The notes beneath the pieces were generated by a model. The model was not told the DNA's origin. It did not search any database and worked only from the letters and a program-made list of their open reading frames with translations. Shown one piece after another: positions 4,020 to 60,880 of a stretch of DNA of 64,000 bases. Made by a program: the position numbers and the translations under genes. Within the stretch, counting starts at the first letter, position 1. The number at the start of each line of letters is the position of its first letter. Source of the stretch: Patescibacteria group bacterium (GTDB taxonomy: Bacteria > Patescibacteriota > Patescibacteriia > Buchananbacterales > UBA6539); the NCBI GenBank assembly GCA_041662625.1, contig JBAZSB010000002.1, forward strand, positions 85,497 to 149,496. The letters are read 5' to 3'.

Positions 4020-4210
4020 CTTACCCTGTGCGCCTTGCCGGGTGCCACAGGGGCCCGTGCCTACCATGGGCACAAACGAGCTATCTGTTCTCTCCTCGAG
4101 AGACCAGAAACGCTCGCCTTCCGCGGGAACCAACGATCTTACCTCCACCTACAAAGCTTGCTTGGCGCAAGAGGGTCACGGGTACGATTTGCGGTTCCCT
4201 TATTTATTTC
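4020..4210. ncRNA. candidate structured RNA (unclassified): ~190-nt GC-rich island in AT-rich intergenic DNA
   Basis: About 58% GC against a ~30% GC flank. Several stable hairpins read directly (CCCTGTG..CACAGGG, GTGCC..GGCAC, GTTCTCTC..GAGAGACC, CTTGC..GCAAG). Only spurious overlapping ORFs with no RBS. Strand and family (SRP, 6S, other) could not be decided by eye. Confidence 0.3.
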
Positions 4211-4334
4211 CGTCAAAAGAATCACTTAAAACCAATAAAATTTACCTACTTTCCCCTACTTTTGACTTTTTTGGTAATAAACTGTATATTATAAAATATT
4301 CTGAATCAGTACCCCTCACTTTTAGGGGCCCTTA

Positions 4335-4629
4335 GCCCCTCACCTGAAAAGTTTTTATGTTTTATGTCTATATTCTAAAAAGTAAAAAAGATGGTAGTAT
4401 CTATGTTGGGTATACCAATGATTTAAAAAGAAGATTTTTAGAACATAATAATTTAAAAAGTAAATCAACAAAAAATAAGGCGCCTTTTGAGCTGATCTAT
4501 TATGAGGCCTATAAGGCAATGGCTGACGCCAAATATCGAGAAAATAACCTCAAAAGATTCGCTAAAGCCTATATTCAACTGAAAAGAAGGATTAAAAATA
4601 GCTTAATTTAAACTTTTCAGGTGAGGGGC
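4335..4629 (+). mobile_element. mini-element carrying a GIY-YIG ORF, bounded by perfect 20-bp terminal inverted repeats, inserted at the 5' end of tRNA-Ala
   Basis: GCCCCTCACCTGAAAAGTTT at 4335-4354 and its exact reverse complement AAACTTTTCAGGTGAGGGGC at 4610-4629. 11-bp direct repeat GGGGCCCTTAG at 4325-4335 and 4625-4635; the second copy is the 5' end of tRNA-Ala. Confidence 0.6.
4357..4611 (+). CDS. GIY-YIG nuclease family protein (small, ~84 aa)
   Basis: YVYILKSKKDGSIYVGYTNDLKRRFLEHN is the GIY-(10-11 aa)-YIG motif with the conserved Arg and Glu. Same size class as the second copy at 31038..31292. Confidence 0.85.
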   Translation: MFYVYILKSKKDGSIYVGYTNDLKRRFLEHNNLKSKSTKNKAPFELIYYEAYKAMADAKYRENNLKRFAKAYIQLKRRIKNSLI

Positions 4630-4702
4630 CCTTAGCTCAGTTGGCTAGAGCGCCTCCATGGCATGGAGGAGGCCAAGGGTTCAAATCCCTTAGGGTCCAC
4701 CA
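4626..4702 (+). tRNA. tRNA-Ala (anticodon GGC)
   Basis: Cloverleaf folded by hand: acceptor GGGCCCT/AGGGTCC with the G3:U70 Ala identity pair, D-arm GCTC/GAGC, anticodon stem CCTCC/GGAGG, loop ATGGCAT, T-arm AAGGG-TTCAAAT-CCCTT, encoded CCA. Confidence 0.85.
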
Positions 4703-30847: not shown

Positions 30848-30896
30848 ATTGACTAAACGACTAGATTAGATTATTATATAATTTGTTAGAATAAAG

Positions 30897-30923
30897 CTAA
30901 AACTGCCACTTGGCAGTTTTAGC
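30897..30923 (+). terminator. 12-bp perfect hairpin GCTAAAACTGCC-ACTT-GGCAGTTTTAGC
   Basis: Read directly. Confidence 0.5.
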
Positions 30924-30946
30924 TTAGAAAATTTGATGCCATGATG

Positions 30947-31031
30947 GCGCCTTCGTCTAGTGGTTAGTGCCGATGTAAAATCGGCATCCCGATTCGCCGC
31001 ATCGGCGGCGACATCGGGAGACACCAGGTTT
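30947..31031 (+). pseudogene. partial duplicate of the tRNA-Glu 5' half (nt 1-22, then a 53-nt structured insert, then nt 24-34)
   Basis: GGCGCCTTCGTCTAGTGGTTAG and ACACCAGGTTT are identical to the intact tRNA-Glu at 31301. The insert TGCCGATGTAAAATCGGCATCCCGATTCGCCGCATCGGCGGCGACATCGGGAG folds into two hairpins. Confidence 0.6.
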
Positions 31032-31037
31032 CTATCT

Positions 31038-31292
31038 ATGTCTCACTTTTACATTCTAAAAACAAATAAACAGAGCTATTATATAGGCAGTACAGATAAT
31101 TTAGAAACTAGATTAAAATATCATCAAGGCGGTAGGGTAAAAAGCACTAAAGATAAATTGCCAATTGAACTAGTTTTTAAAGAATATTACAAAACAAGGG
31201 CCGAAGCGCAAAAAAAAGAATACAAGGTTAAGGGTTGGAAAAGTAAAAAAATGATTGAAAGATTAATTAAACTTGGCCCGCATCAAAAATAA
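31038..31292 (+). CDS. GIY-YIG nuclease family protein (small, ~84 aa), copy 2
   Basis: HFYILKTNKQSYYIGSTDNLETRLKYHQ is the GIY-YIG motif. The ORF-track N-extension (from 30960) lies over the pseudo-tRNA and is rejected. Confidence 0.85.
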   Translation: MSHFYILKTNKQSYYIGSTDNLETRLKYHQGGRVKSTKDKLPIELVFKEYYKTRAEAQKKEYKVKGWKSKKMIERLIKLGPHQK

Positions 31293-31300
31293 AATAATAT

Positions 31301-31375
31301 GGCGCCTTCGTCTAGTGGTTAGGACACCAGGTTTTCATCCTGGTAACAGGGGTCCGATTCCCCTAGGCGCTACCA
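31301..31375 (+). tRNA. tRNA-Glu (anticodon TTC)
   Basis: Hand-folded: acceptor GGCGCCT/AGGCGCT, D-loop AGTGGTTA, anticodon stem CCAGG/CCTGG with loop TTTTCAT, T-arm AGGGG-TCCGATT-CCCCT, encoded CCA. Confidence 0.85.
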
Positions 31376-31439
31376 AAAAAGATTTCCGGACAAAGAAGTC
31401 TTTTTTGTTTAATCGGGTTTTGTAATATAATAAAGTTAT

Positions 31440-32183
31440 ATGAAAAAAATTTATCTGATTATAATCATTTTGCTTATTGCTCTGGGGGTATACCTAAACC
31501 GTTCATATGCTTATATTTATAATGAAATCGGCAGCGCTGATTTGCGTTCGCCCGACAGCCAGCGCACTTATATGATTACTAACACCAACAAAAACCAGGC
31601 TGAACCAATAGTATACGCGGCATTGGGTGACAGCTTGACTGCCGGCGTAGGCACGGACAACTACCAGCAGGCTTACCCGTATTTAGTTGCCACAAAATTG
31701 GCCGAAAGGGGACCGGCAGTGACTTTGAAAGACTTGGCAGTTTCCGGCGCCAATACCAGCGATGTCATCAAAGGCCAGCTAGCCGAAGCTATTGCGAGCA
31801 AGCCAAACATCATTACTTTGCTAATTGGCGTCAATGACATCCACAATAATGTCGGCAAAGCCACTTTTCAAAAAAATTATGAGGAAATCCTGACGCAGCT
31901 GGCCAAAAACACCAGCGCCAAAATTTATGCTATCAGCATTCCTTACATCGGTACCCACAAGCTTTTTCTGTCGCCTTATCAATTATATTTCAACTTCAAA
32001 ACCAAAAAATTCAACGGGGTGATTAAAGAGGTTGCCGCCGCTTATAAAGTCCAATATATAGATATCTATACTCCCACGGTGAACATATTTAAAAAATCAG
32101 GGCCGCACTATTCAGCTGATTTGTTTCATCCTTCAGCTGCCGGCTACAAATTATGGGCGGACATAATCTCCAAATCGCTGTAA
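31440..32183 (+). CDS. SGNH/GDSL-family hydrolase with signal peptide
   Basis: GDSLTAG block and a GVNDI block. Confidence 0.7.
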   Translation: MKKIYLIIIILLIALGVYLNRSYAYIYNEIGSADLRSPDSQRTYMITNTNKNQAEPIVYAALGDSLTAGVGTDNYQQAYPYLVATKLAERGPAVTLKDLAVSGANTSDVIKGQLAEAIASKPNIITLLIGVNDIHNNVGKATFQKNYEEILTQLAKNTSAKIYAISIPYIGTHKLFLSPYQLYFNFKTKKFNGVIKEVAAAYKVQYIDIYTPTVNIFKKSGPHYSADLFHPSAAGYKLWADIISKSL

Positions 32184-60569: not shown

Positions 60570-60770
60570 ATGTCTGTACCTGCCAAAAGAAGAAGCAGAT
60601 CAAAAGGTAAAAGAGGACGAGCACACCAAGCTTTAGTCAGAAAAAAATTGACTAAATGTTCGAAATGCGGCAAACCAACCTTACCCCACCGGGTTTGTCT
60701 GTTTTGTGGCGCTTATCAAGGTCGCGAAATCATTAAACTAAAAACAAAAAAGAAGAAGGAAAAGAAATAA
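60570..60770 (+). CDS. rpmF: 50S ribosomal protein L32 with Lys-rich tail
   Basis: MSVPAKRRSRSKGKRGRAH....CxxCG...HRVC..CG.Y. Confidence 0.8.
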   Translation: MSVPAKRRSRSKGKRGRAHQALVRKKLTKCSKCGKPTLPHRVCLFCGAYQGREIIKLKTKKKKEKK

Positions 60771-60774
60771 CGCG

Positions 60775-60880
60775 ATGCTAATTTACGGATATCCCGATTC
60801 GTCGGGATCCCGACTTCTTTATTCAAAATAAATTAATGCGTCGGGACATTCGAATAAATTCGCATCATTAGCATTATACT
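60775..60880 (+). promoter_or_regulatory. structured GC-rich leader upstream of nusB
   Basis: ATCCCGA-TTCG-TCGGGAT is a 7-bp stem with a UUCG-type loop. ATGCTAAT (60779-60786) pairs with ATTAGCAT (60866-60873). Shares ATCCCGATTCG with the 53-nt insert at 30990-31005. Confidence 0.4.

Follow-up and report, generated by a model that had tools for sequence, protein, structure and literature searches.

In the 64,000-nucleotide (nt) stretch of Patescibacteria contig JBAZSB010000002.1 analysed here (the window), an intact tRNA-Glu gene is preceded by a broken 5' copy of itself, a pair of hairpins and a gene for a small GIY-YIG nuclease. On a modest balance of probability, this arrangement represents a selfish element, composed of a nuclease and its palindrome, which spreads through tRNA genes of one isotype by break-induced recombination between tRNA-derived repeats. 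A selfish element is preferred to a one-off scar because the same arrangement recurs at tRNA genes across several phyla. The element lies head-to-tail in the tRNA transcription unit and leaves the downstream tRNA whole; its open reading frame (ORF) begins where the upstream tRNA copy ends (nt 41-43) and, in most relatives, ends within the first 15 nt of the next tRNA. Its parts would be the gene for the 84-amino-acid GIY-YIG protein, palindromes with a 7-bp stem (TCCCGAY..RTCGGGA or a GCCGAY variant), taken as the putative recognition hairpins of the nuclease itself, and a duplicated piece of the host tRNA. At the tRNA-Glu locus of the window, the following features are found:

30849..30877, + strand: promoter-like site, TTGACT, 17 nt, TATTAT (10/12 consensus matches)
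30946..30967, + strand: half-copy, tRNA-Glu nt 1-22, identical to the resident tRNA-Glu
30968..30986, + strand: hairpin 1, TGCCGAT-gtaaa-ATCGGCA (fold prediction)
30987..31019, + strand: hairpin 2, TCCCGAT..ATCGGGA, with a nested CGCCG-catc-GGCGG stem in its loop (fold prediction)
31020..31040, + strand: copy of tRNA-Glu nt 23-43, of which nt 23-34 (31020-31031) are identical and the remainder diverged
31038..31292, + strand: gene for the 84-amino-acid single-domain GIY-YIG nuclease, stop codon included (Pfam PF01541)
31275..31284, + strand: relic of a foreign-type tRNA-Glu 5' end, GGCCCGCATC, within the last codons of the GIY-YIG ORF
31301..31375, + strand: intact tRNA-Glu (UUC) (ARAGORN; Rfam tRNA model, 62.3 bits)
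31374..31407, + strand: terminator-like hairpin 3' of tRNA-Glu, CAAAAAAGATTTC / GAAGTCTTTTTTG (inverted repeat)

Two leader bases (AT) extend the match between the half-copy and the resident gene to a 24-nt exact direct repeat (30944-30967 and 31299-31322), and the chance expectation for a 22-nt exact repeat within 64 kb is ~1e-4 by an arithmetic estimate. An earlier, sequence-only reading of this DNA had recognised the identity correctly, but its positions require small corrections: the first match lies one base to the left of the 30947-30968 it gave, the second covers nt 23-34 rather than only nt 24-34 at 31021-31031, and the insert that it saw in the D-arm measures 52 nt (30968-31019), not 53. 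The two hairpins described for this insert, GCCGAT..ATCGGC and TCCCGAT..ATCGGGA, are both predicted, whether the insert is folded as DNA (-26.4 kcal/mol, z = -5.0) or as RNA (-47.3 kcal/mol, z = -4.5), with 0/200 shuffles as good in either case. Beyond nt 34 the half-copy keeps a weak similarity (16/21 positions) up to the ATG at 31038-31040, and this start codon of the GIY-YIG ORF coincides with tRNA-Glu positions 41-43. The half-copy is without the T-arm and the 3' acceptor strand, its D-arm is split by the 52 nt, and it is called as a tRNA neither by ARAGORN nor by the Rfam tRNA model even at E<=10. The suggested application of tRNA models to both copies thus returns the downstream copy alone and identifies the upstream one as no bona fide tRNA. 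Rfam searches for a group I intron or other ribozyme, run at the gathering threshold over the whole window and at E<=10 over 30850-31450, found none; apart from the intact tRNA, the permissive search returned three or four weak matches, all to unrelated families and well under the respective gathering scores. No inverted repeats bracket the GIY-YIG ORF at this locus. An in-frame ORF of 110 amino acids, starting from a GTG at 30960, was considered as an alternative gene and rejected because the hairpins differ in length between loci by numbers that are not multiples of three.

Upstream of the half-copy, the promoter-like site at 30849..30877 may, tentatively, drive half-copy, ORF and tRNA as a single transcript. 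The half-copies of two related loci (L008 and L011; loci outside the window are designated by L numbers) are also preceded by similar promoter-like hexamers, as judged by reading, and such sites are no more numerous in the region than shuffles would lead one to expect. Between the stop codon of the upstream gene and the half-copy, 3' of the hexamers, lies a perfect 15-bp hairpin (30894-30925, AAGCTAAAACTGCCA / TGGCAGTTTTAGCTT, 2-nt loop), which could be either the terminator of the upstream gene or a part of the element. The terminator-like hairpin on the other side, at 31374..31407, is kept in the closest relatives of the locus (L112 and L113).

The ORF at 31038..31292, which the sequence-only reading had rightly placed between the half-copy and the intact tRNA-Glu, encodes a GIY-YIG catalytic domain alone. 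PF01541 (cut-off 22.6 bits) matches its product at 53.3 bits and a second protein of the window, encoded beside tRNA-Ala, at 61.8 bits; in the tRNA-Glu protein the domain spans residues 2-70 of 84, with neither other domains nor a separate DNA-binding region. Its 13 close homologues (63-100% identity) all come from assemblies of the Candidate Phyla Radiation (CPR, Patescibacteria) or from unbinned metagenome contigs, and an alignment with them contains 28 invariant columns, with Y5, Y15, G17, R25, H29, E56 and E61 invariant across all 13. In profile searches against PDB the closest solved structures belong to UPF0213, namely BH0048 (1ZG2, E = 1.1e-11) and EF2693 (1YWL, E = 7e-9), with similarity that is significant across the whole domain. 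The group I intron endonuclease model TIGR01453 scores 19.1 bits, below its cut-off of 56. Among representatives at 50% identity the family comprises 1,905 clusters at E<=1e-10 and 13,824 at E<=1e-3. In tblastn searches, Bacillus subtilis YazA was matched, and among plasmids the only matches were YazA-like or from Sphingomonas, with unrelated palindromes on their flanks. In the 21 pairwise comparisons of seven tRNA-Glu ORFs, the proportion of nonsynonymous differences (pN) is 0.12-0.29 and that of synonymous differences (pS) 0.66-1.0, and the window ORF differs from the six others by a pN of 0.14-0.20. Synonymous sites are thus saturated while pN stays low, and the protein is therefore maintained by selection.

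The module of the window is found again at other tRNA-Glu genes. Thirteen further tRNA-Glu loci, from CPR assemblies, carry the layout of half-copy, nuclease gene and intact tRNA, and among 80 related loci, gathered by protein similarity alone with one genome per species scanned, 11 lie at tRNA-Glu genes with the same module. In the window, L002, L007-L011, L024 and L081 the order is tRNA-Glu nt 1-22, hairpin, hairpin, nt 23-41 and then ATG; a Magasanikbacteria contig and a marine contig likewise show nt 1-22, two hairpins, nt 23 onward, ATG, ORF and an intact tRNA-Glu. In L012-L014 the hairpins are placed after nt 12, not nt 22. Since the upstream copies of L007 and L024 are perfect through nt 41, with the ATG immediately 3', the boundary is assigned to the 3' side of the anticodon stem (nt ~41-43). 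The breakpoint at anticodon position 34 that had been proposed from the window is thereby replaced, the anticodon loop of the window copy having merely diverged. At the opposite end, most homologous ORFs finish in GPIV-stop, codons that are themselves tRNA-Glu nt 1-15 (GGCCCCATCGTCTAG/A), so that the ORF runs into the next tRNA.

Comparison of the tRNA-derived ends provides a further indication of how such a locus may have formed. The relic near the end of the window ORF reads GGCCCGCATC, to be compared with the family consensus GGCCCCATC, and the resident tRNA-Glu begins GGCGCCTTC. Across 8 loci, nt 1-22 of the half-copy match the tRNA resident at the same locus at 19.9/22 positions, versus 18.4/22 for the tRNAs of other loci (permutation p = 0.006), and the match to the resident gene is complete (22/22) in 4/8. 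A resident-type half-copy combined with a foreign-type relic fits an arrival of the ORF from another genome, which would have been followed by recombination or gene conversion with the resident tRNA. The hairpins are kept by selection as well, because hairpin 1 of the window is identical over 19/19 positions to hairpin 1 of L008 (Magasanikbacteria) against a background of saturated synonymous sites, although the two ORFs are only 72% identical. In the contig region of L008 (L001, 3420-4928), genes for a CD-NTase (SMODS) and a Cap15-like effector, a defence pair of the cyclic-oligonucleotide-based antiphage signaling system (CBASS) type, stand directly 3' of the tRNA-Glu element.

Hairpin 2 of the window belongs to a family with the stem TCCCGAY..RTCGGGA that accompanies the nuclease gene. 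Such hairpins occur within 350 nt of the ORF in 67/80 loci, at a density of 1.79 per kb versus 0.12 per kb in the remaining flanks, a 14-fold enrichment. The stem is exactly 7 bp long, with Watson-Crick pairing falling to 23% outside it and 26% inside it, and its innermost pair covaries (T:A 74, C:G 72, A:T 13). Mismatches within the stem are without RNA-type wobble asymmetry (G:T and T:G together 19, A:C and C:A together 21), and the constraint therefore looks DNA-level, or either-strand, rather than transcript-level. A 10-nt flank matching the tRNA of the same locus was found for 96/127 nearby hairpins, whose insertion points cluster at tRNA nt 27/28, 36, 12 and 22. In the window, the hairpins lie 19-70 nt from the ORF on its 5' side only. 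From these comparisons the hairpin insert is judged to be a conserved, selected and sequence-specific component common to several phyla, and not debris in a dead gene copy.

A second copy of the whole 52-nt insert, for which a search had been proposed, is absent from the window even at <=3 mismatches; only its short hairpin motif recurs, once, at the following position:

60792..60846, no strand assigned: orphan hairpin pair, TCCCGAttcgTCGGGA then TCCCGAC..37 nt..GTCGGGA, in the rpmF-nusB spacer

This pair stands between rpmF (60570-60770) and nusB (60881 onward), away from any tRNA or GIY-YIG gene, and may be either a footprint of the element or a palindrome copy that lives on its own.

The association with tRNA genes extends well beyond tRNA-Glu. 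The 80 loci come from CPR, Bacteroidota, Ignavibacteria and other host groups, with culturable carriers that include Pedobacter albus (L062), P. planticolens (L086), Mucilaginibacter pankratovii (L059), Flavipsychrobacter stenotrophus (L021) and Christiangramia gaetbulicola (L073). A tRNA on the same strand lies within 150 nt of the ORF in 59/80 and within 60 nt in 45/80. Within 900 nt of the ORF, 98 tRNAs are on the same strand versus 1 on the opposite strand. The neighbouring isotypes include Glu, Val, Asn, Ser, Lys, Leu, Gly, Ala, Tyr, Pro and Gln; most ORFs are flanked by partial copies of the adjacent tRNA, and the layout of broken half, nuclease and intact tRNA is also found at Ser, Asn, Lys, Leu and Tyr tRNAs. 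What recurs is a tRNA copy with a TCCCGAY..RTCGGGA-stem hairpin either inside one of its segments or in place of it, as illustrated by the following cases:

tRNA-Val, Bacteroidota: hairpin replaces the anticodon arm (nt 27-43) of the copy just 3' of the ORF
tRNA-Asn, Ignavibacteria: hairpin after nt 37
tRNA-Ser, several host groups: cluster of hairpins inserted at nt 35/36
tRNA-Lys and tRNA-Leu, CPR: hairpin replaces the anticodon arm
tRNA-Gly, one locus (L016): three hairpins replace D-loop, anticodon-arm and T-loop segments

In the Bacteroidota tRNA-Val loci, the ORF is preceded by an intact tRNA-Val that has the same terminator, and the stop codon of the ORF is the TAG of TAGCTCA (tRNA nt 8-10). 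The hairpin-substituted tRNA-Val copies are named 'tRNA-SeC(tca)', 'tRNA-Cys(aca)' or undetermined by ARAGORN (L062 2738-2813, L067 2731-2806, L072 2382-2460), because the hairpin loop is taken for an anticodon loop, and such copies are a likely source of spurious tRNA annotations in Bacteroidota.

A sister element was identified at the tRNA-Ala gene of the same window, where the features are as follows:

4324..4336, + strand: direct repeat, 2 leader nt and tRNA-Ala nt 1-11 (= 4624-4636)
4335..4354, + strand: left arm of a perfect 20-bp inverted repeat, GCCCCTCACCTGAAAAGTTT, which brackets the ORF
4357..4611, + strand: sister-clade GIY-YIG ORF of 84 amino acids, 41% identical to the tRNA-Glu protein
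4610..4629, + strand: right arm of the inverted repeat, AAACTTTTCAGGTGAGGGGC, overlapping tRNA-Ala nt 1-4
4626..4702, + strand: intact tRNA-Ala (GGC) (ARAGORN; Rfam)

The sequence-only reading had regarded the two loci as mirror images. This holds in outline, as both consist of a 5' repeat, an ORF for 84 amino acids and an intact tRNA; it fails in detail, the tRNA-Ala locus having an 11-nt tRNA repeat and a 20-bp inverted repeat and no CCCGA hairpins. In the proposed comparison of the two proteins, both contain a GIY-YIG domain, and identity amounts to 41%. The tRNA-Ala ORF belongs to a very large CPR clade (1072 relatives among 90%-identity clusters), and the window has a constant layout in common with five more loci of this clade, which lie at Val(CAC), Ala(UGC) and Lys tRNAs (including L096, L098, L102 and L103): a direct repeat of tRNA nt 1-11, GCCCCTCACCT..., the ORF, and ...AGGTGAGGGGC overlapping the first four bases of the intact tRNA. 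The palindrome of this clade is CCCCTCACC, unlike the CCCGA hairpins of the tRNA-Glu clade, and the separation is consistent across loci: the CCCTCACC..GGTGAGGG bracket is present in 6/6 Ala-type loci and 0/80 loci of the other clade, whereas CCCGA hairpins are present in 0/6 and 68/80, respectively. Clade-specific palindromes are as expected if the protein recognises its palindrome.

Two further observations concern the surroundings of the sister element. Just upstream of it in the window lies a GC-rich island (~4024-4200, + strand; GC 0.49 versus ~0.28 around it), which folds much better than its shuffles on the + strand (z = -5.2, 0/200) but not on the - strand (z = -1.95). Rfam gives no match to it at E<=1, and it is a candidate unknown structured RNA. 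In addition, at L098/L099 (1298-1855) the gene caller predicts a product of 326-331 amino acids with GIY-YIG and PseudoU_synth_2 domains 3' of the tRNA-Ala element, which could be a fusion or a read-through call.

Several loci carry stacked or decaying copies. In L081, which shares its assembly with L010, the half-copy and hairpins are almost the same as those of L010; after them come an ORF with a ~98-nt internal deletion, a second partial tRNA-Glu (nt 1-36), a different GIY-YIG ORF and an intact tRNA-Glu(CUC). Such stacking of two apparent insertions 5' of one intact tRNA-Glu is the outcome expected from a recurring, tRNA-sparing insertion. The recurring insertion suggested by the sequence-only reading thus finds support in the 13 further tRNA-Glu loci, the other isotypes, the sister clade and L081. 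The ORF of L009 has a premature stop, and 2-5 ORF units stand in tandem in 21/80 loci. Together, stacked, tandem and degenerate copies indicate mobility. The largest array seen, 3' of tRNA-Asn in Ignavibacteriales (L031, 1714-3512), comprises five tandem GIY-YIG units with a 392-nt period.

An empty site was sought by anchoring on the SGNH hydrolase gene downstream of tRNA-Glu. Metagenome contigs yielded SGNH relatives that are only ~50% identical and have no tRNA-Glu upstream, and the protein database yielded closer relatives of this gene, at 84%, 78%, 71% and 70% identity. The closest relatives by this neighbouring gene (84%, 78% and 70%) are without both the ORF and an intact tRNA-Glu. In the 84% and 78% relatives the terminator and spacer are kept, and homology to the window stops inside the tRNA-Glu gene: in L113 (270-360) a tRNA-Glu remnant of nt ~57-73 abuts a hairpin with an 8-bp stem (GCCTCGAC..GTCGAGGC), and in L112 (885-915) the last ~10 nt alone remain. 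The upstream genes differ among the window, L112 and L113, which means that synteny breaks inside the tRNA. The locus is therefore regarded as a rearrangement hot spot.

The closest functional precedent for the tRNA-Glu element is, by analogy, that of the Ssn/NTS single-strand nucleases. SsnA of Neisseria meningitidis is a monomeric, single-domain GIY-YIG nuclease of 94 amino acids that binds NTS/SRM hairpin repeats as single-stranded DNA (ssDNA) and cuts just upstream of them, the identity of the loop being irrelevant (Chenal et al., 2025; PMC11893778). Ssn genes are typically flanked by their own repeats, and the authors point to an insertion sequence (IS)-like appearance and to an analogy with REP/RAYT (PMC11893778). 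The tRNA-Glu element resembles this system in its small single-domain protein (84 versus 94 amino acids), in the short hairpin-forming repeats with a conserved stem and a free loop that flank the gene, in the stem core TCCCG..CGGGA common to the window hairpins and NTS (ATTCCCGCG..CGCGGGAAT), in cognate repeats that are clade-specific, and in an overall IS-like architecture. It differs in that the conserved 5' GTCWY flank is missing from the hairpins, and in that its repeats lie within tRNA-derived sequence and its gene is linked to tRNA genes; the main text of PMC11893778 never mentions tRNA.

On this precedent, the nuclease would bind its hairpin in single-stranded DNA and cut nearby, as SsnA does at the NTS hairpin. 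The break would then be repaired through recombination between tRNA-derived repeats, and the repair would copy ORF, hairpins and the 5' part of the tRNA into another tRNA gene of the same kind. The displaced 5' half would stay upstream and an intact tRNA would be regenerated downstream, with the ORF probably transcribed from the tRNA promoter and the tRNA freed by normal 5' processing. A broader proposal is held more tentatively and falls somewhat short of an even chance, namely that these loci belong to an unrecognised and very widespread class of tRNA-gene-resident selfish elements, each consisting of a GIY-YIG nuclease of ~85 amino acids and its own palindrome, which spread by converting tRNA genes, with a tRNA arm swapped for a hairpin and part of the tRNA duplicated, and thereby leave one working copy.

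Several observations weigh against the selfish-element explanation. The 84-amino-acid domain carries no DNA-binding module, and its specificity is putative. Nothing visible shields the intact tRNA-Glu, 8 nt downstream, from a nuclease that would target tRNA-Glu genes, and the homology arms offered by the half-copy are short (22 and ~20 nt). The Ssn-related motif (SRM), HGTCWYN(0-2)YYVSBRHN(0-5)WNVSBRGN(0-2)RNCYNB, gave 0 matches on both strands of the window and the 80 loci, with the NTS control matching; the hairpins are for this reason not filed as SRM. In Bacteroidota the ORF follows the intact tRNA, in CPR it precedes it, and with layouts that differ between phyla a single mechanism may not cover every case. 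None of the 84%, 78%, 71% and 70% relatives has an intact, unoccupied tRNA-Glu, and the insertion is deduced from the anatomy of the locus. Finally, saturated synonymous divergence under strong purifying selection would equally fit an old domesticated gene.

This last point leads to the explanation that the gene is a domesticated, Ssn-like ssDNA nuclease, kept in the tRNA operon for a cellular role, with the half-copy as the fossil of a single ancient insertion. The role could be to limit incoming hairpin-bearing ssDNA during transformation or conjugation, or to serve genome maintenance, and the hairpins would have been retained because they benefit the host as sites of regulation or recognition. 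Dependence on DNA uptake, which is reported for CPR bacteria, counts towards such a role, as do the strong purifying selection on the ORF with its saturated synonymous sites and the occupation of the identical site in several CPR classes. Neisserial SsnA itself has been proposed to be domesticated to modulate transformation (PMC11893778). On the other side stand the truncated or interrupted copies (L081, L009), the stacked and tandem copies with up to five per locus, the many tRNA isotypes and phyla affected, the foreign-type tRNA relic at the end of the window ORF and the break in homology inside the tRNA of the relatives. Decayed and stacked copies, spread over isotypes, a foreign relic and a tRNA-internal break are as expected of a moving and decaying element, and domestication is accordingly considered unlikely, at roughly the level of a minority view.

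An explanation at the RNA level is more doubtful still. Here the half-tRNA and hairpins would form a structured 5' leader that controls how the nuclease mRNA, as part of a tRNA precursor, is stabilised, processed or translated. Such a leader would account for the 98:1 co-orientation of ORF and tRNA, for the promoter-like site upstream and for the quality of the predicted RNA fold (z = -4.5), in which the AUG region is paired. It is at odds, however, with the lack of wobble asymmetry among stem mismatches (19 versus 21), with a stem sequence that is conserved rather than freely covarying, with the position of the Bacteroidota hairpin 3' of the ORF inside a tRNA copy, and with the orphan hairpin pair in an unrelated spacer. 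Furthermore, the half-copy is not called a tRNA and is without the T-arm and 3' acceptor strand that substrates of RNase P and RNase Z require. Altogether, a leader function is given about the weight of a long shot.

The two remaining explanations are effectively excluded. Coincidence, in which a tandem duplicate of tRNA-Glu decayed, a REP-like host repeat landed in the dead copy and a small ORF happened to lie between, draws on the single occurrence of the hairpins elsewhere in the window away from any tRNA or ORF, and on the tendency of palindromic repeats to build up in non-essential DNA. Host repeat families are, however, lineage-specific, whereas one 7-bp stem accompanies one protein clade in CPR, Bacteroidota, Ignavibacteria and other phyla; hairpins are enriched 14-fold locally, hairpin 1 has the same tRNA position and identical sequence in distant genomes, and the sister protein clade has a different palindrome, all of which leaves coincidence very improbable. 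The idea, touched on in the sequence-only reading, that the upstream half is exon 1 of a tRNA-Glu with an endonuclease-coding group I (or other) intron in its anticodon loop has next to nothing left in its favour: the position near that loop and the frequency of GIY-YIG genes in group I introns speak for it, but no ribozyme is matched at E<=10, the half-copy is unscored as a tRNA and has a D-arm split by 52 nt, a complete tRNA that includes a 5' half stands downstream where a 3' exon would be required, and in relatives the copies reach nt 41-43 and the hairpins replace tRNA segments rather than interrupt them.

Several other systems share individual features with the proposed selfish element. 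[quoted passage not shown] The likeness lies in a GIY-YIG nuclease gene sited among tRNA genes. The Seg and I-TevI enzymes possess a separate DNA-binding region and are more than twice as long as 84 amino acids. They reside in phage rather than cellular genomes and are not known to be associated with hairpin repeats, tRNA-half duplication or arm replacement. Phages and integrative elements that target tRNA genes duplicate the 3' part of the tRNA, use tyrosine or serine recombinases and are many kilobases long. The element described here resembles them in its use of a tRNA gene as a conserved, safe landing site that is kept functional by a duplicate of the disrupted part, and in the partial tRNA copy that remains at the other end; it differs in that the 5' part is duplicated, the whole element measures ~0.35 kb and no recombinase is encoded. 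REP/BIME-RAYT systems (IS200/IS605-like) offer another parallel, with short palindromes that are recognised folded and single-stranded, are dispersed or clustered and flank the gene of a cognate nuclease. RAYT, however, is a HUH/Y1 transposase and can rejoin DNA. GIY-YIG enzymes do no more than hydrolyse it, and the spread of the present element must therefore rely on host recombination. No transposase-type enzyme is encoded at the tRNA-Glu or the tRNA-Ala locus, although the latter does have its perfect 20-bp inverted repeat and a 13-nt direct repeat; the tRNA-Glu locus has no bracketing repeats.

Two further comparisons concern the host group and the protein family. GIY-YIG ORFs have been reported within CPR rRNA genes, in insertions that belong to neither of the intron groups I and II (Tsurumaki et al., 2024; PMC11270868). 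These insertions sit at the tops or bases of stem-loops and were judged to be sparse and not spread by homing (PMC11270868). They share with the present loci the host group and the presence of GIY-YIG ORFs within structural RNA genes, but no tRNA association, hairpin motif or duplication is described there. The UPF0213/YhbQ/YazA/Slx1-like proteins include the nearest solved structures by sequence to the tRNA-Glu protein; the UPF0213-type genes are single-copy and of unknown function, with no reported tRNA or hairpin context. Full-text literature searches found no account of tRNA-tied GIY-YIG ORFs, of arm-replacing hairpins or of 5'-half duplication, an absence that is not in itself proof. With its tRNA association, arm-replacing hairpins and 5'-half duplication, the element looks like one that has been undescribed so far.

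A selfish element of this kind would represent a new landing strategy, in which the 5' half of a tRNA is regenerated, as opposed to the 3' half in integrase elements, by a unit of ~350 bp that carries no recombinase. It would explain the tiny ORFs annotated as 'GIY-YIG nuclease family' beside tRNA genes, the accompanying tRNA fragments and the miscalled hairpin-bearing copies. If the broader proposal of a widespread class is true, a large share of the pseudo-tRNAs, odd 'tRNA' annotations and tandem tRNA arrays of CPR, Bacteroidota and Ignavibacteria would stem from these elements, which would also constitute a natural library of thousands of hairpin-nuclease pairs. The proposal would tie Ssn-type single-strand nucleases to a concrete genomic behaviour and provide testable cognate pairs of hairpin and enzyme, with relevance for the development of ssDNA tools. 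It would also bear on the turnover and duplication of tRNA genes in the very small genomes of CPR bacteria, in which each tRNA gene is often present as a single copy.

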